Positions 3,033-49,484 of a stretch of 64,000 nt of DNA are shown one piece after another (positions within the stretch are counted from its first letter, which is position 1; the number at the start of each line of letters is the position of its first letter). The stretch lies in assembly GCA_016218585.1 (NCBI GenBank), contig JACRDK010000010.1, positions 68,974 to 132,973 of the forward strand, read 5' to 3'. A model generated the notes under the pieces. That model was not told the DNA's origin. It searched no databases and saw only the letters and a list, made by a program, of their open reading frames with translations. This DNA is from Candidatus Doudnabacteria bacterium. GTDB lineage: Bacteria > Patescibacteriota > Doudnabacteria > UBA920. The position numbers were made by a program, and so were the translations under genes.

Positions 3033-4325
3033 ATGCAGGCTGAAAAACTTGAAAATTTGAAAAGTCTAATATCGTCGTCGCCAATATTGCTGCCTCAGGA
3101 GCGGACAGAGTGGCTGACGCTTTTGGGTTTGATGAACGACAAACAGTTAAATGAGCTGGAAAAGATTCTCCAGTCTGGAATTAAGAATCAAGAATTAAGA
3201 ATTAAGGAAGAAACACAAACCACCTCAAGCCAAAAATCTGCAAGTCAGGTTGCGTCTTTTCAACCGGCGATTTTAAAATCCGAAGCTCCCAAGCAGGTTC
3301 CGAATTTGAGCCATATAATGAACTTGCCAAAAACTTTTGACGGCAAGCCCGCGGCTTTAAAAATTCCCCAAAACCAGACAAGTGGCTTTAATTTTAAACC
3401 ATATGGCGTAAGCTTAGACAAACCGGCAATAAAAGCAGCCCCGGCGGTCTCTTCAGTCGACCAGAAAGCAAAATCCGGATTTGCGTCGAAGTTAAAATCT
3501 ATTTTTACAGAAAAAGAATTAACCACCAGTCAGCCCAAGTATGAGTTAAAGCTTCCGCCTCCGGAGGTGCCAAAACCAAAGCCGAAAGTTGTAGCGCAAC
3601 CGACTGCGGAAGCAAAGCCGGTGGTTCAGCCAAAACCTTCAGCAATTCCTGCAGTTCAACAAAAATCTGTTGTAACGCCTTTGGCTCAGCCAAAGCCGAT
3701 TACCGAAAAAAAGACGGAGATGGCGCCGGTTCAAACCCCTCAGGTAAAGCCGGAATTAAAGAAAGAGCTGGAAAAAATTGTCCCAACTGTCCCGCAGTCA
3801 GTGGAATCTATTTTAGCCAGCTTAAAAAAGCCGGCCGAGACCCCAATTTTCAATAAAGCGGAACACCAGGCTCCGGTCCAACAACAGCCACGCCCTGCAC
3901 GCCAGACCTCGGGTTTAAATTTTGGCCACGCTTCGGAAAAAATCAGGCAGGATACCCTGGCTTCGGTTAAACAGCATTTGGAAGAAACCGGCAGATCACA
4001 AAACGTTCCTATATTCCAAAAAGTATTGCCTAAAAATTGGGATATAAAATCTCTGGAAGACTTAAAAGCTATGGACGCGCTTATTCTTACCGCTGATTTG
4101 TCGACAGTTGCAAAAAAAATTAAAAAACTTTATAGCAGCCACGATTTTCATGATGTAATATTTAGCCTGGAAAATAGCGAACTCTATAAGAATTATTTAA
4201 AAACCGGCACAGAAATACTCACTAAACAAACCGACTTTGAAAATTTAAACCCCGCATCGGGTTTTTTGGACAGAAGCCAATTTGAGAAATTTACCGATCT
4301 GCTTAGGGAAATTCAAGGAGAATAG
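3033..4325 (+). CDS. Hypothetical proline/lysine-rich protein (low-complexity PKP repeats)
   Basis: 430-aa ORF with a PPPEVPKPKPKVVAQP type low-complexity region, which would fit a periplasmic or cell-envelope spanning protein. Confidence 0.45.
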   Translation: MQAEKLENLKSLISSSPILLPQERTEWLTLLGLMNDKQLNELEKILQSGIKNQELRIKEETQTTSSQKSASQVASFQPAILKSEAPKQVPNLSHIMNLPKTFDGKPAALKIPQNQTSGFNFKPYGVSLDKPAIKAAPAVSSVDQKAKSGFASKLKSIFTEKELTTSQPKYELKLPPPEVPKPKPKVVAQPTAEAKPVVQPKPSAIPAVQQKSVVTPLAQPKPITEKKTEMAPVQTPQVKPELKKELEKIVPTVPQSVESILASLKKPAETPIFNKAEHQAPVQQQPRPARQTSGLNFGHASEKIRQDTLASVKQHLEETGRSQNVPIFQKVLPKNWDIKSLEDLKAMDALILTADLSTVAKKIKKLYSSHDFHDVIFSLENSELYKNYLKTGTEILTKQTDFENLNPASGFLDRSQFEKFTDLLREIQGE

Positions 4326-4364
4326 GGACAAGTATATAGCATTTAGCATATAGAATTTAGAACA

Positions 4365-4736
4365 GTGGAAAACCATACTAAAATCCAAAATTTTACAGAT
4401 CTTATAGTTTGGCAGAAGTCACATGCTTTAGTTTTGGATGTTTATAAGCTGACTAAAAAATTTCCAAAAGATGAGTTATTTGGTTTGGTTTCTCAATTAC
4501 GTAGAGCTGCTGTGTCAATAACCTCAAATATTGCTGAAGGTTTTGGGAGGTTTTCCGAGAAGGAGAAGCTTCATTTTTATTCTTTCTCATATGGGTCACT
4601 TTTAGAAGTTAATAATCAAATATTAGTTGCAAAAGATCTTGGTTATATGAGTGAAGAAGAAAAACAAAAAGTAGTTATGCTGTCCATAGAAGTTGGCAAA
4701 ATGCTCCAAACGTTAATGGCAAGAATTAAATGCTAA
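4365..4736 (+). CDS. Four-helix-bundle protein (23S rRNA intervening-sequence protein family-like)
   Basis: 123 aa with the characteristic FPKDELFGLVSQLRRAAVSITSNIAEGFGRFSEKEKLHFY core. GTG start. Flanked by related imperfect inverted repeats. Confidence 0.7.
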   Translation: MENHTKIQNFTDLIVWQKSHALVLDVYKLTKKFPKDELFGLVSQLRRAAVSITSNIAEGFGRFSEKEKLHFYSFSYGSLLEVNNQILVAKDLGYMSEEEKQKVVMLSIEVGKMLQTLMARIKC

Positions 4737-4789
4737 GTATTTATAGAGCTAAATGCTAAATTCTATCTACTATATGCTATAATTTAGAT

Positions 4790-5248
4790 ATGCAATTCCC
4801 AGTACCACAATTTACCGACGTTGAAGATAAAATTATTGGACCGCTTACAATAAAGCAGTTTGGAATTTTGTTTGGCTTAGGAGTGGTTTTGTTTTTGGGA
4901 TATTCAGCCACTAAAAGCATAATAGTTCTGATATTTCTGTTTTTAATTCTAGGAATTCCCGGACTATCCCTTGCTTTTGCGAAAATTAATGGGCGCCCTG
5001 TTTACAATAGCATTGGATATTTTGTTAAATTTTTCTTGAGTCCTAAAGTGATGGTCTTTCATAAAGAAGCTGTTTCTTTAAGGTCAGACGCAGAAGTAAA
5101 AGACGCAAATTTGAAATCCGACACGGTAACTAAGCAGTCGGACAAAGAAGATACTCAAGACAATCTCCGCAAGGTGCAGCAATTGTTAAGGCAGACCCAG
5201 GACCAGGAAGAAGAAATGGTTAGGGCAAGAAGCAAGAGTCAGGAATAA
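4790..5248 (+). CDS. PrgI/VirB3-like small membrane protein of T4SS
   Basis: N-terminus MQFPVPQFTDVEDKIIGPLTIKQFGILFGLG is followed by two TM helices. This is the pattern usual for PrgI-family genes next to VirB4. Confidence 0.55.
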   Translation: MQFPVPQFTDVEDKIIGPLTIKQFGILFGLGVVLFLGYSATKSIIVLIFLFLILGIPGLSLAFAKINGRPVYNSIGYFVKFFLSPKVMVFHKEAVSLRSDAEVKDANLKSDTVTKQSDKEDTQDNLRKVQQLLRQTQDQEEEMVRARSKSQE

Positions 5249-6484: not shown

Positions 6485-8332
6485 ATGAGCATTTTTGGAA
6501 AAATTTCAGAGATAGAGCTTCAAGAAAAAAAGCAGTTGCTTGAAGAAAAGGAAGCTGAAAGCAGCACTCGCGCCAGCTTGCGGGATTTAGACGTGACTTA
6601 CCGGGAAGGCCTTACCACATTAAGGGACCTTATTGCCCCTTCGTCTCTAAAGTTTGAAAGTTCTTATTTTGAGCTAAACGGCAAATTAGGCCGAAGCTTT
6701 TTTGTGCTGGCATACCCAAGGTTCCTTTCTACCAACTGGCTGTCATTTATTATTCAGGCTGAAGGCGCGCTGGATTTGTCTATGTTTATTTATCCGATTG
6801 ACTCCGCGGAAATATTAAAGAAGCTTAAGTCAAAGGTGGGGGAAATTGGCTCGCAAATGTCCATTAACCAGGAAAAAGGCATGGTGCGCGACCCAATGCT
6901 TGAAACTGCTTATAAAGATGTGGAAAGTTTGCGCGACAATTTAATGCAGGGAACGGAAAAATATTTTCGATTTGCTTTGTACTTTACCATCTATGCTGAT
7001 GACCTAAAAGAACTGGAAAAGTTTTCAACTACTTTAGAAAGCTCGCTTGGCTCAAAACTTATTGTTACCAAGCGCGCGCTGCTGCAAACCCAAAATGGTT
7101 TAAATTCAACTTTACCTTTGGGAACCGACGAGTTGGATGTGGCTAATAATATGAACACCAGCCCGTTGTCGTCCTGTTTTCCTTTTGTTTCGTCTGATTT
7201 AACCAGTAATGACGGAATTTTATATGGGATTAACCGCCACAATAACAGTTTAATTTTATTTGACCGGTTTGCCATGGAAAATGCTAACGCCGTGGTATTT
7301 GCCAAGTCCGGCGCGGGAAAATCTTATGCGGTAAAACTTGAAGTTTTGCGCAGTTTGATGGTCGGCACGGAAGTTATTATTGTTGACCCGGAAAACGAAT
7401 ATCAACATTTGGCTGCGGCGGTTGGCGGCACTTATTTGAGCGTCTCCTTAAACTCAGCTTCCAGAATTAATCCGTTTGATTTGCCGGCTGCTATTGAGGG
7501 AGAAGACAACGGCGACGTGCTAAGAAGCGCGGTTATTAATTTGCTGGGTCTTTTCAGTTTAATGATAGGAAAACTTAATCCGACCGAAGAAGCTTTAATG
7601 GACAAGGCTATTTGGCAAACTTATGCCAAAAAAGATATTACCCCGAATTTAACCGATTTTCACGGCGTGGAATATCCGACTATGAACGATTTGGTGGAAA
7701 TTTTAAACAGCATGGTTGGCGCCGAAAGCTTGGCGCAGCGTTTAGAAAAGTATACCCAGGGAACTTTTGGAGGGCTTTTAAACCAGCAAACCAATGTTGT
7801 GTTAAATAACCAACTGGTTGTTTTTTCCATTCGTGATTTGGAAGAAGAGCTCAGGCCAATTGCAATGTACATAATTTTGAACTTTATTTGGAATATTGTG
7901 CGTTCGGAATTAAAAAAGAGAATTCTTGCGGTAGACGAGGCTTGGATTTTAATGCAGCACGAAGATAGCGCCAGGTTTTTGTTCGGCATTGCCAAACGCG
8001 CCCGCAAGTACTATTTAGGCCTTACCACAATTACCCAGGACGTGGCCGACTTTTTAGCCAGCCCTTATGGCAAGCCAATTGTGACTAACTCATCTATCCA
8101 GCTGTTGCTTAAACAAAGCCCGGCAGCTATAAATATTATTGCCGAAACTTTCTTTTTAACCGAAGGGGAGAAGTATTTATTGCTGGAAAGCGAAGTTGGA
8201 GAAGGAATTTTCTTTGCCGGGTTAAAGCACGCGGCAATAAAAATTTATGCTTCTTACGTGGAAGACCAAATTATTACTACAGACCCGAAGCAGCTTTTGG
8301 AAATTCAAGAGAGCCAGGACAAACTTAGTTAA
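6485..8332 (+). CDS. virB4: VirB4/TrbE-family T4SS ATPase (C-terminal main part)
   Basis: Walker A FAKSGAGKSYAVK and Walker B ILAVDEAWILM are present, and the overall architecture fits. The ATG at 6485 directly follows the heptad repeat element. Confidence 0.8.
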   Translation: MSIFGKISEIELQEKKQLLEEKEAESSTRASLRDLDVTYREGLTTLRDLIAPSSLKFESSYFELNGKLGRSFFVLAYPRFLSTNWLSFIIQAEGALDLSMFIYPIDSAEILKKLKSKVGEIGSQMSINQEKGMVRDPMLETAYKDVESLRDNLMQGTEKYFRFALYFTIYADDLKELEKFSTTLESSLGSKLIVTKRALLQTQNGLNSTLPLGTDELDVANNMNTSPLSSCFPFVSSDLTSNDGILYGINRHNNSLILFDRFAMENANAVVFAKSGAGKSYAVKLEVLRSLMVGTEVIIVDPENEYQHLAAAVGGTYLSVSLNSASRINPFDLPAAIEGEDNGDVLRSAVINLLGLFSLMIGKLNPTEEALMDKAIWQTYAKKDITPNLTDFHGVEYPTMNDLVEILNSMVGAESLAQRLEKYTQGTFGGLLNQQTNVVLNNQLVVFSIRDLEEELRPIAMYIILNFIWNIVRSELKKRILAVDEAWILMQHEDSARFLFGIAKRARKYYLGLTTITQDVADFLASPYGKPIVTNSSIQLLLKQSPAAINIIAETFFLTEGEKYLLLESEVGEGIFFAGLKHAAIKIYASYVEDQIITTDPKQLLEIQESQDKLS

Positions 8333-8400
8333 ATTTCCAATTTCCAATATCCAATTTCCAAATTTCAAACAGAATTCTTTTGGAAATTAGTCATTAGGAA

Positions 8401-11382
8401 TTGGAAATTTTTAATAATATGGCCGATACGTCCACTCAAAATGATACTCAGGAGGAAGAACTAAGCCCGCAAGCGGGTAAGCGGGAAGATTCCGATACCA
8501 TAGCAATTCGGGAGCCTTTTAATTTGGGCGGCCAGGACAGAATAGTTTATGATATCTCGGTAGATAAGGGTCCCAAATTAACTTTTGGCTGGAAAATAAA
8601 GCCCGGGTCTGTTGTGGAAATTTCCGGCAGCGGGCTGGATATTTATGACCAGATAATTTTGTGGATCGCCGGGAGCCGGGAAGAATACAGAGAGATTGAC
8701 CGCAGCAAAGACGGAAGAACTATAAGTTTTAAAGTTCGCGATAATATAAGCGAGCTTTATGCCGAGGGGGCTGCGGCTGAGTTAGAATTTGTAAATTCAG
8801 GAAACGCGCAACAGAACCGTTATTTAAAACAACAATTTAGAATTGCCCAAGAAACGGAAGAGCAAAAAAAACAACGGAAAGTGCAGGAAGAATCTGACCG
8901 CATAAAAAACGCCGCAGGGATTGCAGCCGAGCAAGCTTTAAATTCAACTCTTGCCGCCGCAGGCTCAGTTCCTGTTTCCGCTGGTGCCAATGCCGTTGCC
9001 TCGTCAGCAGCGCCAGAGCGGGCCCGGCAAATTAATGAAGAGTTAGACGATGACGGCGAAAATACTTCAGACGTTGTCACTGATGGGTCAGAACAGGAAG
9101 TTTCCGGAACAGGTGTTGCAGGCATAAAAACCCAGGAAACAATTACTCAAACCGCTACAGGAGAAACAGATAATGTTGTTTCCGGTTCAATAAATCAAAC
9201 AGTAAATACTGAAGTGCGATCGGCCGGTCAAACAGAAACAAATGTTTCGGGTTCTGTTGAAAGCCAAAGCCAAAGCCAAAACACTTCCAGGGCACAAATT
9301 AATTCTAATGTTTCTTCTTCAACCACAACTCAAACTCAAGCCTCTGCTAACGTTTCTTCTTCGGGTAAGGTAGAAAGCCAAACCAGTTCAGGCGGCTCAA
9401 GGGAAACCAAAATTTCCGGCAATGTCTCAGGCGGTGTAAGCGGGAGCGGAAAACAAACAGTTTCGGCAAAAGCTTCGACAAACAGGCAGGTTAATGCCCA
9501 AACCAGCGCAACAGTAAGCGGCCAAGGAGGTAGTAAGGGTCAGGCCGGTTTACAAACTGAGTCTGAGGTTAGCAATGAAGTTAATGCTAAGGCAACTCAA
9601 AATCAGTCAGTCCAAAATCAAGAGCAGATTCAAGAAAAAACAAAAACAGAAGCAGAAACATCAGCTAAGTCAGAAGCCAGTTCCGGACAGAACCAGTCTC
9701 AACCAGAAACCCCACAAGCTCAAAAACCAGAAACTGGTCAGGAAAAAACAGCCAAAGATACTCAACCCGAACAACCACAACAGGCAGCCCCAGCCCAGGC
9801 CAAGCCAACAAAAACCCAGGCACCTGGAAAGGGTAATATTGACGGAGCTTCCCCAAAACCTCTTGATAAAACTGCAAAAAAATCTGTTGAGCCAAAGACA
9901 GGTACAGAACAACAAGAGCAAGCTCCTGTTAAGCCGCCAAAAGGCTTAGAGGGTGTTTTAAGTAAGTTTGGGGCAAACAGCGCAGCCCTGGATTCTAAAA
10001 TTGGCTTTAGGCCTACGTCTTTAGATTTAAAAAATAATGAAAAGCAAAATAGTTCGGCCAAGCTAGGAGGAGGCAGGACAGGCGGCAGGGCGGAAGATCA
10101 GGATACAAAAGAAAAGGATGATAATCAAAAAGAACCTGAAGTCCAGCAGGGTGCCGGAGCAGCTCCGTTAAAACAGCCGCTTGGGGATATGCCGCAGGGC
10201 GATCAGAAATCGGAGGTCGGGGATCAGGCGGGTGTGCCGCCAGCAAGACAGCCCAATCAGGTGCCGGAGGAAGAACAGCCAAAGCAAGATAAAGATTCCG
10301 AAAAAGAGCCTCAAGAGGAAGTTGAGCAGCCAAAGCAAGCAGATGATAACCTGCCAAATGCGGATCAAGGCGTTAGAAGTTTTAGCATTGCCGAAGCGGA
10401 AAAGTGGTTAAACACAACAGTTAATGTTTACTTACAAACTTTGGCCACAATGGTGTGGGCAGGGGCATTGCCTACTTTAGGTTTAATGATTTTAATTGGC
10501 GCTATTGGCGGCGATTTAATTTGGCTGTTGAAAGATCGGGTTGTAAAAGAAGCATTAAAGAGAACTCCGTTGCCAAAAAGATTTGGCAATATTAAGCCTG
10601 AAGATTTAAAAATAAATATTAATTTTGCAATTAAGGCGCAAATTGTTCTTTGGAATTTAATTGTTGCTTTGATTTTGTGTTTTATTTTTGTTTTTGTGTT
10701 TACAATATTTTGGTCAATTTGTAATTCGCCGATTTATTACCCAATCAGGCAGACATCTTTAAAATCCGCCTGCGAGTATCTGGACAGCACCAAATTAAGC
10801 TCGTCTTTAAGTAATTTTCAAAGCACCGGCAGTTTTGTTGCGAGCAATAATACCCCGGGTAGTTTAATTAGCACCGCCAGTTGGACTGACCAAATAAATA
10901 GCACGGCGCAAAAATGGAATATTGACGCCTGTATTTTGCGCGTGGTAATACAAAAAGAATCAACCGGAAAAGCAGATGTAATTGGCTGCGACTGTGCTGC
11001 TGACAAACACCCGGAATATTGCCCGGATAAAAGGAAAACATACAGTTCAGACTACCAATTTAACTGGGCGCAATGTTCTTATGGTATTGGGCTCACCCAA
11101 TGGACTATTTATCCCAAAGGCGGCAGCGGATACAAGGCTTGGCAGGATGCCAGCACCCCTTCCAGGCAATTATACTCTTCCTGGTACGGCATTTCCGACT
11201 TTTTAAACCCAACCACCAGCTTGGATTTAACAGCTAAAGCTTTTAGCGCTAATTTAGCCAGGGCTAATGGGGACGTGGCCTCGGCTTTTGCGGCGTATGT
11301 AGGAGCCAGCAACGTACAGGCTCAGCTGGTAGCCGACAGAATGGCTTTATATAATTTGTGTAAAAGTTCAGCCACTCCTTAA
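8401..11382 (+). CDS. Large membrane protein with a long S/T/Q-rich disordered region and a C-terminal lytic-transglycosylase (SLT/VirB1-like) domain
   Basis: TM helices occur around aa 700-760. The C-terminal region has QKESTGKADVIGCDC and YGIGLTQWT, which are SLT-like catalytic Glu-Ser and GLxQ motifs. The likely true start is the ATG at 8419; 8401 is a TTG. Confidence 0.55.
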   Translation: MEIFNNMADTSTQNDTQEEELSPQAGKREDSDTIAIREPFNLGGQDRIVYDISVDKGPKLTFGWKIKPGSVVEISGSGLDIYDQIILWIAGSREEYREIDRSKDGRTISFKVRDNISELYAEGAAAELEFVNSGNAQQNRYLKQQFRIAQETEEQKKQRKVQEESDRIKNAAGIAAEQALNSTLAAAGSVPVSAGANAVASSAAPERARQINEELDDDGENTSDVVTDGSEQEVSGTGVAGIKTQETITQTATGETDNVVSGSINQTVNTEVRSAGQTETNVSGSVESQSQSQNTSRAQINSNVSSSTTTQTQASANVSSSGKVESQTSSGGSRETKISGNVSGGVSGSGKQTVSAKASTNRQVNAQTSATVSGQGGSKGQAGLQTESEVSNEVNAKATQNQSVQNQEQIQEKTKTEAETSAKSEASSGQNQSQPETPQAQKPETGQEKTAKDTQPEQPQQAAPAQAKPTKTQAPGKGNIDGASPKPLDKTAKKSVEPKTGTEQQEQAPVKPPKGLEGVLSKFGANSAALDSKIGFRPTSLDLKNNEKQNSSAKLGGGRTGGRAEDQDTKEKDDNQKEPEVQQGAGAAPLKQPLGDMPQGDQKSEVGDQAGVPPARQPNQVPEEEQPKQDKDSEKEPQEEVEQPKQADDNLPNADQGVRSFSIAEAEKWLNTTVNVYLQTLATMVWAGALPTLGLMILIGAIGGDLIWLLKDRVVKEALKRTPLPKRFGNIKPEDLKININFAIKAQIVLWNLIVALILCFIFVFVFTIFWSICNSPIYYPIRQTSLKSACEYLDSTKLSSSLSNFQSTGSFVASNNTPGSLISTASWTDQINSTAQKWNIDACILRVVIQKESTGKADVIGCDCAADKHPEYCPDKRKTYSSDYQFNWAQCSYGIGLTQWTIYPKGGSGYKAWQDASTPSRQLYSSWYGISDFLNPTTSLDLTAKAFSANLARANGDVASAFAAYVGASNVQAQLVADRMALYNLCKSSATP

Positions 11383-42158: not shown

Positions 42159-44576
42159 ATGTCTTGGGTAGAAAAAATAAAAACCAGTGTTGATAAATAC
42201 ATTGATGACTTGGCTTTGCGCGAACTTCAGTATCGCGTAAAGTTGGTTTTGCGCGAACGGGCGGAACTGCAAACCTGGACAGATAGGGAAATAAAGCTTG
42301 CGGCCCTAGCCTTTAAGGATGATTTGAAAAAAGGTAAAAGCTTGGACACTTTGGTGGTTCAGGCCTTTGCTGTTGTAAACGAGGCCGCAAGGCGCGTTTT
42401 GGGTCAGTCCGCTTATGAAGTGCAAATTTTAGCAGGCATGGTTATTCATTCCGGCCGCGTGGCGGAAATGAATGCGGGAGAAGGAAAAACTTTAACCGAA
42501 ACTATGCCCGTGTATTTAAATGCGCTTACCGGAAAAGGCGTTCACATAATAACCACCAACGATTATTTAGCCGAACGCGACGCTAAATGGATGGGCAAGC
42601 TGTATGAATTTCTAGGTTTGAGCGTGGGATATGTAACATCTACAATGGAAAATGACGAACGGCGGAAGGCTTACGCTTGCGACATAACTTATGTCACAAA
42701 CCAAGAAATTGGTTTTGATTATTTGCGCGATAATTTAGTTTTTAGCAAAAAAGACAGAGTGTTGCGCGCGAACCACCCGTTATATTTTGGCATTGTGGAT
42801 GAAATTGACAGTATTTTGGTGGATGAATCGCGCACGCCGTTAATTATAGCGGAACCGGTTAAAGAGGAGCGCCAGGAATATGACAAGTTCGCTAAAATCG
42901 CGCAAAAATTAAAAGAGGAAGAGGACTATAAAGTAGATTACGCAAACAAACAGGTAAAAATGACAGATGCCGGTTTGGATAAAGCGGAGAAACTTTTAGG
43001 GAGCCCGGTTTTCTCGCGCGACAACCCAATGTATGTTTTTTATTTGGACGTAAGCTTAAAAGCCAAAGTTATTTTTGAAAAAGACCGGGATTATATTATT
43101 AGCGACGAAGGCGTGGAAATCGTGGACGAATTTACGGGACGCGTTTTGCCCGGGCGCAGGTTTACCGACGGCGTGCATCAGGCCATTGAAGCTAAAGAAA
43201 ATGTTAAAGTCAAAGATGCCGACCGCACCCAGGCAGCTATTACATTTCAGAATTTTTTTCCGATGTATGAAAAACTTTCCGGCATGAGCGGAACGGTTAT
43301 GCGCGCGCGTTCGGAATTTAATAAAGTTTATAAATTAGACGTAATTAAAATTCCTACTAACCGCCCGCTGGCGCGCATTGAACATAATGATTTGTTCTTT
43401 AAAACGGAAAAAGGCAAATTTTTGGGAATGATGAAACGGGTAATGCAAATTCACCGAAAAAACCAACCGCTGCTAATTGGCGCGCGCAATGTGGAAACAG
43501 CGCACAAGGTTGCCGGGCTGCTGGAAGAAGTAAATTTGCCGTTCCAATTGCTTACCGCCAAGGATCATAAGGCGGAAGCGGAAAAAATTGCCAAGGCCGG
43601 GCAGCCGGGAATGATTACAGTGGCGACCAATATGGCCGGGCGCGGTACCGACATTTTGCTCGGGCCCGGAGTTAAAGAGGCTGGCGGATTATTTGTTCTG
43701 GGAACAGAGCGCCATGAATCGCGCCGCATTGACGACCAGTTAGTCGGCCGCGCCGGCAGGCAGGGGGAGCCGGGCGAGTCGCTGTTTGTAATTTCTATGG
43801 AAGATGAAATTATGCAGCTATTCGGCAGTGAAAAAATTATTAATGTCATGGAGCAATATGACATTCCGGAAGACGAATATATTTCCGGGCAAACTTTAAG
43901 CGAGGCATTTAAAAAAGCTCAGGATTTTGTGGAGAGTAAAAATTTGGACAGCCGGTTGTATTTATACAAATACGATAACATTGCCAACCATCAGAGAAAA
44001 GTAATTTGCCAGTTGCGTGATTCGTTATTGGAAAATGAGCCAAATTTTTGGGAATTTGCCAAAACATCGGTGGCGGAAATTTTGCAGGACACGCTTAAAT
44101 TGGGCGACGCTTCCTTAATTGCCAAAGAAATGCTCGCGGTTTTTCATATTGCCGCGGATACTGAAGAGGTAATAAAGGCTTTTGGCGCCTCGCATACGGG
44201 ACAGGGGAGTTTTGCAAATGAATGGTTAAATCCATTTTATACAGAACCGCAAAACAGCAAGCAGGCGGAAGAACTTTTTTCAAAATTGTTAAAGTTTTTA
44301 ATCGACACAATGGAAAAAATTAAACAGGAAGAAGTAGTTTACGCCGCCAGCCAGAATTTAATTTTAGAAACAATCGACAATCAGTGGAGCAACCATTTGG
44401 AATTAATGGATTTGCTTAAGCAGGAAGCCAACCTTTTTTCTTACGCTTCGGAAGACCCGCTAATTGACTATATATTAGAGAGCGCCAAGCTGTTTGAAAA
44501 CATGCAAAAGCAAATAAAGAGGCAATTTTTGACGAATATTTTTTTGCATTTGCAGCAACAGGGCTTAATCGGGTAA
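42159..44576 (+). CDS. secA: Preprotein translocase ATPase SecA
   Basis: MNAGEGKTLTETMPVYLNAL is a Walker A. The DEAD-like motor and C-terminal domain layout are present. Confidence 0.9.
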   Translation: MSWVEKIKTSVDKYIDDLALRELQYRVKLVLRERAELQTWTDREIKLAALAFKDDLKKGKSLDTLVVQAFAVVNEAARRVLGQSAYEVQILAGMVIHSGRVAEMNAGEGKTLTETMPVYLNALTGKGVHIITTNDYLAERDAKWMGKLYEFLGLSVGYVTSTMENDERRKAYACDITYVTNQEIGFDYLRDNLVFSKKDRVLRANHPLYFGIVDEIDSILVDESRTPLIIAEPVKEERQEYDKFAKIAQKLKEEEDYKVDYANKQVKMTDAGLDKAEKLLGSPVFSRDNPMYVFYLDVSLKAKVIFEKDRDYIISDEGVEIVDEFTGRVLPGRRFTDGVHQAIEAKENVKVKDADRTQAAITFQNFFPMYEKLSGMSGTVMRARSEFNKVYKLDVIKIPTNRPLARIEHNDLFFKTEKGKFLGMMKRVMQIHRKNQPLLIGARNVETAHKVAGLLEEVNLPFQLLTAKDHKAEAEKIAKAGQPGMITVATNMAGRGTDILLGPGVKEAGGLFVLGTERHESRRIDDQLVGRAGRQGEPGESLFVISMEDEIMQLFGSEKIINVMEQYDIPEDEYISGQTLSEAFKKAQDFVESKNLDSRLYLYKYDNIANHQRKVICQLRDSLLENEPNFWEFAKTSVAEILQDTLKLGDASLIAKEMLAVFHIAADTEEVIKAFGASHTGQGSFANEWLNPFYTEPQNSKQAEELFSKLLKFLIDTMEKIKQEEVVYAASQNLILETIDNQWSNHLELMDLLKQEANLFSYASEDPLIDYILESAKLFENMQKQIKRQFLTNIFLHLQQQGLIG

Positions 44577-44587
44577 TTTTGTTTTTT

Positions 44588-44656
44588 TGTAGGGGCTGGC
44601 CTTGGCCGCCCAAAATCTCAGTAATTTAAAACGGGCGGCTGAAGCCGGCCCCTACA
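44588..44656. repeat. REP-like palindromic element, left copy (TGTAGGGGC...GCCCCTACA)
   Basis: A long imperfect hairpin immediately after the secA stop. It is paired with the copy at 45166..45249. Confidence 0.7.
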
Positions 44657-44708
44657 AAAGCAATTCTTTTGTATGAGTGTTTTGCCGGAAAGAAAACTAA
44701 ATCGTTAA

Positions 44709-45170
44709 AAAAATTTTGACTACGCGTCAGCGGGATATTATTTTATTACCTTATGTACAAAAAATAAGAAGCATTATTTTGGCAAAATTGAGAATGGCTT
44801 ACCAGTCTTAAATAAAGTTGGAAAACTGGTTTGCGAAACATGGCTCACTTTACCGGAAATATTTTCAGGCATAGAATTAGACTTAAGTGTGGTTATGCCA
44901 AACCATTTTCATGGGGTTATAATTTTTAAACGAAACCCTCATTATGCAAAAGCCTGTAAGCAGGCAAGTCTCGGACAAATTATTGGAGCTTTGAAATCAA
45001 AGACAAATGTTTTGACAAGAAAAAATATTTTTCCTGACATGAAAAGTGTTGAATTATGGCAAAAAAGTTTCTATGACAGAGTTATAAGAAGCGAAGTTGA
45101 ATTGTTAAAAATTAGAGAGTATATTCAGAATAATCCATTAAAGTGGAGTTTGGATGAATATTATGTGTAG
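44709..45170 (+). mobile_element. REP-associated tyrosine transposase (RAYT / IS200-TnpA-like, HUH-Y1), start disrupted by an in-frame TAA
   Basis: AGYYFITLCTKNKK, the HUH motif VMPNHFHGVI, and C-terminal REYIQNNPLKW. The upstream ATG at 44673 is in frame but separated by a TAA at 44706-08. Confidence 0.7.
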
Positions 45171-45249
45171 GGGCGAGCTTTATCTGCCCGAAAATTAAAA
45201 GCCCAGTTAAATATAAATCAACCGCGGGCGCCTAAAGGCTGCCCCTACA
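45166..45249. repeat. REP-like palindromic element, right copy, overlapping the RAYT stop codon
   Basis: tgtaggggcgagctttatctgcccg...cgggcgcctaaaggctgcccctaca. Confidence 0.7.
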
Positions 45250-45340
45250 AACCATTAATAAAATCAGATGGTTACGAAACCAGCGAGCATTTACGCCCAA
45301 GTGTATTGCCATAAAGGCTTTTTTTTTATATAATAATCCC

Positions 45341-45622
45341 ATGTTAAGCCGTGAAGAAGTATTAAAATTAGCCAAAATGGCTCGCATTGCTTTAAGCGAT
45401 GCGGAAGTCGAAAAGTTCCAAAAGAATTTGGATGCTGTTTTAGGCTATGTGGATGACTTAAAACAGGTAGATACTTCCGGTTTGGAAGAGGTTTCCCAGG
45501 TTACTGGTTTAATAAACGTTCAGCGTGACGATAAGGTTGTAGTTGAAGAAAACCGGGAAGATATTTTTTCCCAAGCCCCGGAAATGAAAGACGGATATTT
45601 TAAAGTAAAAGCAATATTATAG
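45341..45622 (+). CDS. gatC: Asp/Glu-tRNA amidotransferase subunit C
   Basis: N-terminal LAKMARIALSDAEVEKFQKNLDAVLGYVDDL. Lies upstream of gatA. Confidence 0.85.
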   Translation: MLSREEVLKLAKMARIALSDAEVEKFQKNLDAVLGYVDDLKQVDTSGLEEVSQVTGLINVQRDDKVVVEENREDIFSQAPEMKDGYFKVKAIL

Positions 45623-45647
45623 CGAGAAGAATTAAGAATCAAGAATC

Positions 45648-47138
45648 ATGGAGTTGGAATTTTTAGAACTTACTGAGCTTAGAAAAAAATTAGACAACAA
45701 AGAACTGTCTTCGGTTGAGCTAACGAAGCATTTTTTGTCGCGCATAAAAAATTTGGACAAAGATTATAATTCTTTTGTTACGGTAACCGAAGAAGAGGCT
45801 TTAAAAAATGCCAAAGAAGCGGACGATTTTATAAATTCCCCCGGTGAAAATCCTTTTTTGTGCGGCATACCTTATGCTTCCAAAGATTTATTTTCAACCA
45901 AAGGAATACGAACTACGGCTTCTTCAAAAATTTTGGATCAGTTTAAACCGGCTTTTGATGCCACGGTAACCAAGAAATTAAAAGAACAAAAATCTGTTTT
46001 ACTGGGAAAAACTAATTTAGATGAATTTGCGCATGGTTCGTCCACGGAAACTTCCGCTTACGGCCCGTCAAAGAATCCCTGGGACACTTCCCGTATTCCG
46101 GGCGGCTCTTCCGGCGGCTCAACCGCTGCGGTTGCGGCCGGCTTAACCCCTTGGGCTACAGCAACGGAAACAGGGGGAAGCATTCGCCAGCCGGCATCTT
46201 TGTGCGGCCTTTCCGGATGGAAACCAACCTACGGGCGCGTGAGCCGCTACGGCGTTATTGCCATGGCCTCATCTTTAGACAGCCCGGGAGCGGTTGCAAA
46301 TAGCGTGGTAGACTTAGCCCATTTGGCGGAGATTATGTCCGGGCAAGACGAAAAAGATTCCACCACCAGCCCGGTTCCGGTACCGGCTTACGCAAAAAAT
46401 TTGTCCGCCGATATGTCGGGCATAAAAATTGGCGTACCCAAAGAATATTTTGTTGATGGAATGGAAGATGGCGTAAAGCAGCGAGTTATGGAAGCCGTAA
46501 AGCATTACGAAAAAATGGGCGCAAAAATTCAGGAAGTAAGTTTGCCAAATACCAAATTTGGTTCTTTGGTATATGCTATTGTTTGCCCTTCGGAAGTTTC
46601 TTCCAACTTAATGCGCTTTGACGGTATTCGTTACGGCCATACCACTAAAGATGCCAAAGACTTAATGGAAGTTTATGAAAAATCCCGCGCCGAGGGTTTT
46701 GGCGATGAGGCCAAGAGAAGAATTTTAACCGGAACTTACGTACTTTCCGCCGGCTATTACGATGCCTACTATAAAAAAGCGCAGAAGGTCCGTAGTTTAA
46801 TTATCAATGAATTTAAAGATGTGTTTAAACAGGTAGATGTACTGGCTTGTCCCTCTAGTCCTAATGTTGCGGTAAAAATTGGCGGGGCAAAAGATAACCC
46901 GTTATTTGGGTACATTGCCGACCAGTTAAATATTCCCGGCAGTTTGGCCGGACTTCCGGCATTGTCTATTCCTTGCGGTTTTGGCCGTCCTTCTGACGGG
47001 GAAACTCCAAGCTTGGATGGTCTACCGGTTGGCTTGCAGATAATCGGTCCGCAGTGGGGCGAGCAAATTGTATTTAACGCAGGGTTTGCGTACCAGCAGG
47101 AAACAGATTGGCACTTAAAGCATCCTGGCCTTGCCTAA
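45648..47138 (+). CDS. gatA: Asp/Glu-tRNA amidotransferase subunit A (amidase signature family)
   Basis: GGSSGGSTAAVAAG amidase signature. Confidence 0.9.
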   Translation: MELEFLELTELRKKLDNKELSSVELTKHFLSRIKNLDKDYNSFVTVTEEEALKNAKEADDFINSPGENPFLCGIPYASKDLFSTKGIRTTASSKILDQFKPAFDATVTKKLKEQKSVLLGKTNLDEFAHGSSTETSAYGPSKNPWDTSRIPGGSSGGSTAAVAAGLTPWATATETGGSIRQPASLCGLSGWKPTYGRVSRYGVIAMASSLDSPGAVANSVVDLAHLAEIMSGQDEKDSTTSPVPVPAYAKNLSADMSGIKIGVPKEYFVDGMEDGVKQRVMEAVKHYEKMGAKIQEVSLPNTKFGSLVYAIVCPSEVSSNLMRFDGIRYGHTTKDAKDLMEVYEKSRAEGFGDEAKRRILTGTYVLSAGYYDAYYKKAQKVRSLIINEFKDVFKQVDVLACPSSPNVAVKIGGAKDNPLFGYIADQLNIPGSLAGLPALSIPCGFGRPSDGETPSLDGLPVGLQIIGPQWGEQIVFNAGFAYQQETDWHLKHPGLA

Positions 47139-47536: not shown

Positions 47537-49039
47537 ATGAAAGAATATCCCAAGTCAACTGAATACAAACCGGTAATTGGGTTTGAAATACATATTGAAC
47601 TTAAAACTAAGTCCAAGATGTTTGGTACGGCGGCTAATAATCCGGATGAAAAACAGCCAAACACTAATATCGATGAAATTGATACCGGGCAGCCCGGAAC
47701 TTTGCCTGTGGCAAACAAAGAAGCTATCCGTTTGTCAGCTCTGGTTGGCTTGGCTTTAAATTGCCAAATTGATGAATTTTCCAAGTTTGACCGCAAACAT
47801 TATTTTTATCCGGATTTGCCCAAAGGGTATCAGATTTCCCAGTACGACCAGCCTATTTCAAAAAATGGTTATTTGGATATTGAAGTTAACGGCAAAACTA
47901 AGCGCATAGGCATTACTCGCGCCCACTTGGAGGAAGATGCCGGAAAAAATGTGCACCCAGATGGCTTGCCTTATTCTTTGGTAGATTATAATCGCGCCGG
48001 CGCGCCGCTTTTGGAAATTGTTACTGAGCCGGATATTGAAAGCGGAGAAGAAGCGCGAATTTTTTTGCAGGAGCTGCGCAACATTGTTCGCTATTTGGGA
48101 GCTAGTGATGCCAATATGGAAAAGGGGACAATGCGCTGCGAACCGAATATTTCCGTGCGCCAGCCGGGCGAAACAAACTTGCCAAAATATAAAGTGGAAG
48201 TAAAAAATATTAACAGCTTTAAATTTGCCGAGAGCGCAATTAATTATGAAATCCCGCGCCATATTGAAATGCTTAAAGAGGGGAAGACCCCAAAGCAGGT
48301 CACTATGGGCTGGAATGAAAAAGATTCCTGCACGGTTGAGCAGCGCAGCAAAGAAGAGGCTGACGGTTACCGTTATATGCCGGAACCGGACTTGCCGATT
48401 TTACAGTTTACCAAAGAATATTTGGACAACCTGCGCAATATAATGCCGGAATTGCCGACGCAAAAACGCGCGCGATTTTTGGAAGAATACAAACTTCCTG
48501 CGGCAGACGTGGAAAACTTAATTAACTGGAAAGAACTGGCGTTTTATTTTGAAGATGTTGTCTCGGAAATAGATGAATGGATGACGCAAGAAGCGGGACT
48601 GGACAGGAACCAAATGATTAAGCTGGCGGCTAACTGGTGTCTGCAGGATTTTAGCGCATTGTTAAATCAACAGTTAATTAATCCTTCGGATTCCGTTGTA
48701 ACGGCCGAAAATTTTTCGGAGTTAATTAAGTTAATAGTTAGCGGGAAAATTTCTTCCAGCGCGGCCAAACAAGTTTTTAAAGTAATGTATGAAAAAGGGG
48801 GCGATCCAAGCAATATTGTGGAAGACTTAGGATTAACTCAGGTATCCGACGAGGGCGCCATTGCCGAAGCCTTAGACAAAGTAATTGCCGCTAATGAAAA
48901 GGCTGTGGCAGATTATAAAGCGGGAATGCAAAAAAGTTTTGGTTTTCTTGTCGGTATGGCAATGAAAGAGCTAAAAGGCAAAGGCAACCCGCAAATTATA
49001 AACGAACTGCTAAAAAAGAAACTGAATAACACGGATTAG
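47537..49039 (+). CDS. gatB: Asp/Glu-tRNA amidotransferase subunit B
   Basis: N-terminal YKPVIGFEIHIELKTKSKMF and a GatB/YqeY C-terminal domain. Confidence 0.9.
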   Translation: MKEYPKSTEYKPVIGFEIHIELKTKSKMFGTAANNPDEKQPNTNIDEIDTGQPGTLPVANKEAIRLSALVGLALNCQIDEFSKFDRKHYFYPDLPKGYQISQYDQPISKNGYLDIEVNGKTKRIGITRAHLEEDAGKNVHPDGLPYSLVDYNRAGAPLLEIVTEPDIESGEEARIFLQELRNIVRYLGASDANMEKGTMRCEPNISVRQPGETNLPKYKVEVKNINSFKFAESAINYEIPRHIEMLKEGKTPKQVTMGWNEKDSCTVEQRSKEEADGYRYMPEPDLPILQFTKEYLDNLRNIMPELPTQKRARFLEEYKLPAADVENLINWKELAFYFEDVVSEIDEWMTQEAGLDRNQMIKLAANWCLQDFSALLNQQLINPSDSVVTAENFSELIKLIVSGKISSSAAKQVFKVMYEKGGDPSNIVEDLGLTQVSDEGAIAEALDKVIAANEKAVADYKAGMQKSFGFLVGMAMKELKGKGNPQIINELLKKKLNNTD

Positions 49040-49320: not shown

Positions 49321-49484
49321 GAGTCAATAAAAAAGCTGGCCAAATAAAAATTGTGCAGTTTTGGACGATCGTCCAAAACTGCACAATTTGTTTAATATAT
49401 TTTTGCGGTATAAATGTGTTATATAAATGATTCACGGGCAGCGGTTTTAAGGCCGCTGCCCGCGTTGGTTGCTTGAGACGCCGA

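Follow-up and report, generated by a model that had tools for sequence, protein, structure and literature searches.

The stretch of DNA analyzed, named here the window, comprises 64,000 nucleotides from a metagenome-assembled genome of Candidatus Doudnabacteria, in which the reading frame of a predicted REP-associated tyrosine transposase (RAYT, or TnpA-REP), a single-strand DNA nuclease of the HUH/Y1 type, lies between the housekeeping genes secA and gatC and is flanked by repetitive extragenic palindromes (REPs) (Table 1). The initial annotation had described palindromes on both sides of this frame, one near the secA stop codon and the other overlapping that of the transposase, and their positions were confirmed: the upstream palindrome (A) begins 11 nt past the secA stop and is flanked by TTTT and AAAA, and the RAYT stop sits in the first GTAG of the downstream palindrome (B). 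On each side of the RAYT, two REP units are placed tail to tail, forming a doublet (REPIN). The in-frame ATG of the transposase and the TAA that interrupts it, also described before, were recovered by translation. The characterization of the genome as AT-rich and resembling the candidate phyla radiation (CPR) holds loosely, with a GC content of 35-50% in the window and Doudnabacteria as its source.

Table 1. Features of the RAYT locus and of its surroundings, in positions of the window (aa, amino acids; ORF, open reading frame).
Feature	Position	Strand	Description
secA	42159..44576	+	805-aa ORF; upstream housekeeping anchor of the conserved locus; TAA stop at 44574-76
REPIN A	44588..44656 (69 nt)	.	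TGTAGGGGC...GCCCCTACA; two inverted REP units, 19-nt AT-rich spacer
REP unit A1	44589..44612	+	GTAG GGGC-T-GGC CTTG GCC-GCCC; 34.8 bits, E = 1.3e-6; bulged hairpin, -6.6 kcal/mol
REP unit A2	44632..44655	-	GTAG GGGC-C-GGC TTCA GCC-GCCC; 34.7 bits, E = 1.4e-6; bulged hairpin, -6.6 kcal/mol
RAYT frame (TnpA-REP-type HUH/Y1 nuclease)	44673..45170	+	165 codons, ATG at 44673 to TAG at 45168-70; interrupted at codon 12
In-frame TAA	44706..44708	+	codon 12; replaces a conserved Leu (NR-L-KNFDY)
Remnant 91-aa ORF	44895..45170	+	P0008; retains HuH and Tyr, without the N-terminal 74 residues
HuH motif, H78-F-H80	44904..44912	+	in PNHFHG; invariant alignment columns; aligns with PEHMHC of 4ER8
Presumed catalytic Y150	45120..45122	+	in YIQNNP; invariant in the alignment; aligns with YIYINP of 4ER8
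REPIN B	45166..45249 (84 nt)	.	two inverted REP units, 34-nt AT-rich spacer
REP unit B1	45167..45190	+	GTAG GGGC-G-AGC TTTA TCT-GCCC; 32.4 bits; degenerate 3' arm, weak fold, -3.7 kcal/mol
REP unit B2	45225..45248	-	GTAG GGGC-A-GCC TTTA GGC-GCCC; 36.9 bits, E = 3.9e-7; fold, -6.6 kcal/mol
Promoter-like site	45306-45334		TTGCCA-17-TATAAT, 11/12 matches; upstream of gatC
gatC	45341..45622	+	ORF; downstream housekeeping neighbor
gatA	45648-47138		ORF, 3' of gatC
gatB	47537-49039		ORF, 3' of gatA

The frame translates as MSVLPERKLNR*KNFDYASAGYYFITL...VVMPNHFHGVII...WQKSFYDRVIR...YIQNNPLKW...YYV*, with the motif MPNHFHGVI within it, and its premature stop was swapped for leucine in the protein searches. 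The ORF is a member of the HUH/Y1 superfamily, as the Pfam profile Y1_Tnp (PF01797) matches residues 66-154 with 27.1 bits (gathering cutoff of 23, E = 4.9e-6), and REP_Tyr_transpos (NF047646) is the sole and best NCBIfam match, with 56.8 bits, a score below its equivalog cutoff. The searches retrieved 342 relatives, the closest full-length ones (166 aa) being 63-74% identical, and several of the more distant ones carry the JGI name 'REP element-mobilizing transposase RayT'. From the JGI metagenome proteins, 80 loci were kept, all of them at most 47% identical, adding nothing on synteny.

Regarding structure, a search of the PDB with the single sequence gave nothing relevant (baculovirus P35, E ~0.09), and TnpA-REP of E. 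coli (4ER8) was reached by the family profile only, where a profile of 15 members matches it with E = 8.7e-5, having the HuH and tyrosine motifs aligned. The AlphaFold2 model has a mean predicted local distance difference test (pLDDT) of 83, and Foldseek related it to 2F4F, 2XM3, 2VIH and 4ER8, which comprise TnpA of IS200, IS608 and ISDra2 as well as TnpA-REP (E from 2.5e-6 to 8e-6). The best global superposition of the model is the one with 4ER8, with a template modeling (TM) score of 0.62 and a root mean square deviation of 3.9 A over 151 columns. In addition, the window protein keeps 21 of 21 invariant positions of the family, including H78, H80, W129, Q130 and Y150. The matches to Y1_Tnp, REP_Tyr_transpos and 4ER8, together with the cognate REPs, support the REP-RAYT-REP unit (REPtron) that had been proposed for this locus.

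The motifs NHFH, WQ (W129-Q130) and YIQNNP form the signature of RAYT subclass 2.4 (Table 1 of Quentin et al. 2018, PMC6006769), which is the same as RAYT Group 4 (Bertels et al. 2017, PMC5581495), and the motifs and the REP type together support placing the protein in this subclass. The initial annotation had also stated that REP/RAYT systems are mostly described in proteobacteria, which is true of RAYT groups 2 and 3; however, the motifs found here are those of Group 4, which is frequent among Cyanobacteria and Bacteroidetes and has a scattered occurrence in further phyla (PMC6006769, PMC5581495).

The REP unit, its doublets and their dispersal

The composite nature of the palindromes emerged from comparing the flanks of the relatives, where a unit of 24 nt recurs, GTAG GGGC-N-NNN-YTTR-NNN-GCCC-G, having the GTAG at the foot of the hairpin and one unpaired base in the 5' arm. 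Palindrome A has 27-nt arms, 85% complementary, and a predicted single-strand DNA fold of -25.3 kcal/mol (z = -6.8), and palindrome B has 25-nt arms, 76% complementary (z = -3.3 for its fold). The palindromic elements of ~70-85 nt reported at first are therefore present, but as doublets of the 24-nt unit, and the long palindrome is not the conserved structure, as can be seen below.

The hairpin test took all GTAGGGGC sites, anchored on that 8-mer alone, from 13 Patescibacteria sources (the window and 12 loci), and 29 distinct REP units entered it. In these units, 92% of the cells were paired, compared to 36-52% when the 3' partner was slid by 1-3 columns, and changes on both sides of a pair were found in 33 cells, compared to 0-4 after sliding. 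Such double changes include GGC/GCC, GCG/CGC, GGG/CCC, GCC/GGC and AAG/CTT, with the loop-closing pair alternating between C-G and T-A, and the GGG/CCC foot of the unit is near invariant. None of 500 shuffles matched the observed percentage of pairing, the number of double changes or the covariation score; the counts of pairs and of pair types were unremarkable in the same test (205/500 and 206/500, respectively).

In 14 doublets, the variable stem positions within a unit are Watson-Crick in 104 of 112 cases, while between the two units of a doublet only 74 of 154 variable positions are the same, thus supporting the hairpin of the 24-nt unit as the conserved structure and the 70-85-nt palindromes as REP doublets (REPINs). 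Most doublets join a TTTA-loop unit with a CTTG-loop unit. The reading of the palindromes as simple long hairpins was dropped, since only about half of the variable positions agree between their halves, each of which is nonetheless self-complementary.

Within the window, the 9-mer TGTAGGGGC has exactly four copies, which are the four palindrome ends, and four matches with one mismatch are found elsewhere, at the shuffled expectation. The covariance model of the REP unit (R1), run over the window with filters off, found only the four sites of the locus, with E from 4e-7 to 5e-6, the next-best hit having E = 0.6. The spacers of the window doublets, 19 and 34 nt, are longer than the 7-15 nt of the relatives.

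The palindromes are not unique to this locus, as hairpins with the GTAG tag flank the orthologues and are dispersed in other Patescibacteria genomes. When a degenerate REP pattern was compared with species-representative genomes, at least 120 blocks were matched. Among the matches listed, there are four genomes of Doudnabacteria, two of Saccharibacteria and one of other Patescibacteria, besides many from Clostridiales/Oscillospiraceae, Bacteroidota and Anaerolineae. A RAYT relative is encoded in 3 of these 120 listed blocks, leaving 117 without the gene, and in two of the three, from Prevotellaceae genomes, a REP lies inside the RAYT gene itself (L020, 4024-4046; L067, 1937-1959). A REP inside the RAYT coding sequence is also present in the metagenomic relatives L166, L168, L170, L171 and L177. 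Since many of the matches outside the CPR are an unbulged variant (GGGCGGG/CCCGCCC), the sequences point to a common type of REP and not to one identical family across phyla.

In Patescibacteria, doublets of the bulged type with 55-63 nt occur away from any RAYT, and L019 has one that is intergenic. Two others lie in frame within genes. In Candidatus Doudnabacteria nzgw384 (L121, JAHFJK010000025.1), a 59-nt doublet at 837-895 falls within the uvrC ORF (24-1337) and adds DVGASFSRPSGDGGGASAAPT in the RNase H endonuclease domain of UvrC, where the Pfam match covers 176 residues for a profile of 159 positions. In the Patescibacteria genome FK_Sedi_B_Bin.235 (L060, JAMDAY010000015.1), a 58-nt doublet at 4340-4397 lies in the gene of the peptide chain release factor 1 (prfA, 3860-4972), adding VGAGFSRPKLEAVGQGRPLQ within the PCRF domain; thus, an essential gene appears to tolerate a REPIN. 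The insertions in coding genes indicate that these elements have moved.

The premature stop codon

Having TAA at codon 12, the window copy lacks the intact reading frame of a functional RAYT. All relatives have leucine at that position (NRLKNFDY), encoded by TTA in L006 and L128 and by CTN in the others, so that one TTA-to-TAA change would be enough. A reassigned or read-through stop has no support, because secA also terminates in TAA, making it a genuine stop in this genome, and because all relatives carry Leu there; a programmed stop of any kind is unsupported. The initial annotation had left the choice between a pseudogene and an internal start. The former is probable, with a single change at the conserved leucine, whereas the next ATG, GTG or TTG past the TAA is GTG 44889 or ATG 44895, 60 codons downstream, and a product from there would miss the N-terminal half of the fold, its first strand and helix included. 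The protein that GenBank labels 'transposase [Candidatus Doudnabacteria bacterium]' (P0008) corresponds to the tail of this nonsense-disrupted RAYT.

The stop is likely a real and recent nonsense mutation, the loss being probably recent because the frame is otherwise open and no invariant residue is missing. The gene could instead be intact in the organism and the RAYT functional, the TAA being an artefact of sequencing or consensus, or a minority allele. This alternative, which is considered unlikely, draws on the 153 open codons past codon 12 and the complete set of invariant residues, on the position of the single-base change at the boundary between a T-run and an A-run (CGTTAAAAAAAT) and on the fact that a metagenome-assembled genome is a population consensus. 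However, a second assembler gave the Logan assembly of SRR12113407 (L005), whose sequence agrees with that of the window throughout 9,293 bp, TAA included, although it may share its reads with the deposited genome. Moreover, among 5.8 billion clustered proteins there was no intact protein more than 74% identical, only the 91-aa remnant. The orthologue of L129 also bears an independent frameshift, so decay of this gene recurs. In JGI metagenomes, a 45-nt stretch around the stop, matched with any codon at the stop position, had no hits.

The frameshifted gene of L129 (2819-3312; JGI 3300031241, Ga0265325_10006882) is a RAYT orthologue at the same secA-gatC position, disrupted in an A-run near codon 30, and represents a second, independent disruption in another lineage. 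Right after the premature stop of the window, inside the RAYT frame, there is a weak promoter-like site (TTGACT-17-TATTTT, 44716-44744, 9/12 matches), which is probably due to chance in AT-rich sequence.

Inheritance of the locus and alternative readings

The order secA-RAYT-gatC is also found in L001, L006, L007, L129 and L130, five assemblies from different samples. SecA Pfam domains were recorded on the syntenic genes of L001, L005 and L129, and GatC and Amidase domains on the syntenic loci. The identity of the window proteins to these loci is 70-73% for the RAYT, 73-75% for SecA (near-full-length matches) and 68-79% for GatC. Of the two origins considered at first, horizontal transfer or a native REP system, the evidence favors the native one, with the RAYT vertically inherited, because the gene order is conserved and the divergence of the RAYT is similar to that of its neighbors; recent transfer is disfavored, and divergence in place at the pace of the neighbors is the behavior published for RAYTs (PMC5581495). 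This lineage of Doudnabacteria has had the locus ancestrally, at a fixed position between secA and gatCAB.

Inverted flanking REPs are also present around the RAYT of L001, L002, L007, L128, L129 and L130. The arrangement doublet-gene-doublet is shared by the window, L130 and L002, single inverted REPs on each side are seen in L001 and L129, and L006 has many REPs at the locus. In four of eight loci (window, L002, L007 and L130), the RAYT stop is the TAG of the downstream GTAG.

The autonomous insertion sequence, an element of the IS200/IS605 type that arrived recently by horizontal transfer and moves as a whole, would also produce a gene between hairpins, and it has in its favor the fold and the Pfam family common with IS200/IS608 TnpA, the single inverted REP per side of L001 and L129, resembling terminal hairpins, and the relatives placed in two other contexts, after the serine hydroxymethyltransferase (SHMT) gene in L002 and after dnaE in L128. 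It is nevertheless very improbable, as the secA-gatC position is kept in six lineages (the window and the five above) with the RAYT diverged like its housekeeping flanks, both ends are copies of one GTAG hairpin instead of distinct left and right ends, and hairpins occur without the gene in the great majority of the genome blocks listed above. Besides, no second RAYT copy was found in the window, and its ORF list has no tnpB-like ORF adjoining the transposase gene.

Just as improbable is a primary function of the palindromes in terminating transcription or stabilizing the RNA of secA and the transposase gene, with an incidental link to the transposase: the long hairpins are stable, palindrome A follows secA closely between TTTT and AAAA, and REPs elsewhere affect termination and mRNA stability (PMC3733652), but the terminator scan calls neither palindrome, the Rfam scan of 44000-45800 yields only sub-threshold microRNA-precursor hairpin matches on palindrome A, taken as noise, the GTAG tag and the bulge, which are conserved, belong to what a RAYT recognizes, units are found in either orientation, alone and as in-frame parts of coding genes, and the covariation backs the 24-nt unit over the long stem. 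Such a role can hold as a secondary effect without displacing the REP reading.

The best explanation for the locus is thus a REPtron, in which a host-resident RAYT, presumably single-copy, is flanked by its cognate REPs, with a probability estimated at about 0.85. By analogy with the biochemistry of E. coli TnpA-REP and IS608 (PMC3479197, PMC6006769), the enzyme would bind the folded REP hairpin on single-stranded DNA, reading the GTAG tag and the bulge or stem irregularity, then cut and rejoin the DNA through the HuH-bound metal and the tyrosine; REP doublets would be copied to new sites in this manner, without movement of the gene itself. In this genome, the RAYT would have been inactivated by the TTA-to-TAA nonsense change at codon 12, the enzyme being probably dead and the four flanking REPs most likely immobile relics, whose possible remaining role is at most that of passive hairpins located between the transcription units of secA and gatCAB.

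Some points weigh against this explanation. The 64-kb window has no REP of this type beyond the locus, and the dispersed population that is the usual hallmark of such systems is observed in related genomes only. The NCBIfam score of the transposase misses the equivalog cutoff of 80 bits, its placement in subclass 2.4/Group 4 is drawn from motifs and REP type, and the nuclease or mobility activity of the members of this clade is predicted, from their better characterized counterparts. Regarding the stop codon, the identity of the Logan assembly is also compatible with an error already present in the reads at 44707, or with an allele of the minority there.

A broader proposal, standing at even odds, is that the REPIN-RAYT has long resided, by vertical inheritance, in Doudnabacteria and other Patescibacteria, whose genomes are very small, keeping a fixed place between secA and gatCAB and having doublets still mobile enough to enter prfA and uvrC in frame, and that this genome and L129 were caught just after the loss of the RAYT. 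If this is true, nature offers in them a test of the idea that REPIN populations collapse after the death of their transposase.

The RAYT of L128 (2833-3360, Doudnabacteria nzgw384) is annotated as a 119-aa fragment (P0010), and its frame is open from an upstream ATG (MNLPVRKPNRL...), being probably an intact full-length gene called too short. In L001 (3001-3060), in L128 (3316-3360) and at the C-terminus of P0004, the RAYT ORF calls run on into the flanking REPs, so that tails such as MSAVGARLARP or VGAGLARPLK are REP sequence in translation instead of features of the protein, and VGAGLARP and similar peptides of neighboring ORF calls have the same origin.

Other repeats were observed apart from the REPs. 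In L006, a GTAGG-rich tandem and palindromic stretch (AGTAGGGAAGTAGGCAAGTAGGTTCGTAGGCCTACCACCCTACCACCCTACC...) lies between gatC and gatA (1321-1378) and is unlike the REP unit. In the window, a perfect 42-nt palindrome without spacer (spacer 0) is located ~300 nt 3' of gatB (AAATTGTGCAGTTTTGGACGA / TCGTCCAAAACTGCACAATTT, 49348-49389), and an inverted repeat formed by short repeats of the TTCCAA type, with 32-nt arms that are 84% complementary, is found at 8331-8410.

Comparison with known REP-RAYT systems

In the literature, REPIN-RAYT systems are treated as elements that persist in bacterial genomes over long times and are passed on vertically. To our knowledge, nearly all studies of them concern Proteobacteria whose genomes are large. 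The present locus shows the same architecture in a lineage of reduced genomes, with a GTAG-tagged bulged hairpin, doublets composed of two types of unit and a syntenic, presumably single-copy transposase evolving at the pace of housekeeping genes, thereby widening the range of known hosts and speaking against a recent horizontal transfer.

With TnpA of the IS200/IS605 family (IS608, ISDra2), the locus has in common the HUH/Y1 fold, the Pfam family and, as predicted, the recognition of hairpins on single strands. However, those elements move as units, often with tnpB, having distinct left and right ends and no GTAG-tagged dispersed repeat, whereas the gene described here is syntenic across lineages and the hairpins disperse without it.

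The REPtron of E. coli (tnpA-REP/yafM, with Y and Z2 REPs organized as bacterial interspersed mosaic elements, BIMEs) is closer, as it also has a single-copy HUH/Y1 gene between inverted pairs of REPs, each REP consisting of a GTAG tag and an imperfect hairpin with an unpaired base. The doublets, mostly made of two REP subtypes (TTTA-loop and CTTG-loop), resemble the Y/Z pairs, and the predicted fold of the transposase superposes on 4ER8 (TM 0.62). On the other hand, the two proteins are only ~16% identical in sequence, and the E. coli enzyme belongs to subclass 2.2, with the motifs DHLH, WE and YIHYNP.

In the REPIN-RAYT of Pseudomonas (Bertels and Rainey 2011, PMC3116915), the RAYT is likewise single-copy, inherited vertically and bordered by hairpin-forming REP doublets, which related genomes carry at dispersed sites, and the gene decays or is lost in some lineages. 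Differently from the present case, that system belongs to Group 3 (subclass 2.5), with another REP sequence, and the copy number seen here is very low.

The closest likeness is to subclass 2.4/Group 4, whose REPs are either long, with three G-C pairs at the stem foot, or of the 'double foot' form GTAG...CTAC, and whose hallmark is the presence of REPs inside the RAYT gene (PMC6006769). The locus shares with it the motifs NH[IFV]H, WQ and YIxNNP, a length of ~165-195 aa without a conserved C-terminal extension, the 5' GTAG tag and the three G-C pairs at the stem foot, and the window doublets, ending in GTAG and CTAC, fit the 'double foot'. The scattered taxonomic spread and the REPs within the RAYT gene of distant relatives are likewise in agreement. 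As differences, the host is Candidatus Doudnabacteria (Patescibacteria/CPR), while tnpA-REP was reported to go with a larger average genome size (Quentin et al., PMC6006769), and the window copy has a nonsense codon and no REP inserted in the gene.

Database annotations already call such Patescibacteria proteins transposases, and no paper linking RAYT, TnpA-REP or REPIN with CPR taxa was found in the literature. The locus is an ordinary example of a known system, of incremental value and changing no concept: the type of system, the subclass, the form of the REPs, their insertion in genes and the vertical inheritance have already been published, and what is new is the host.

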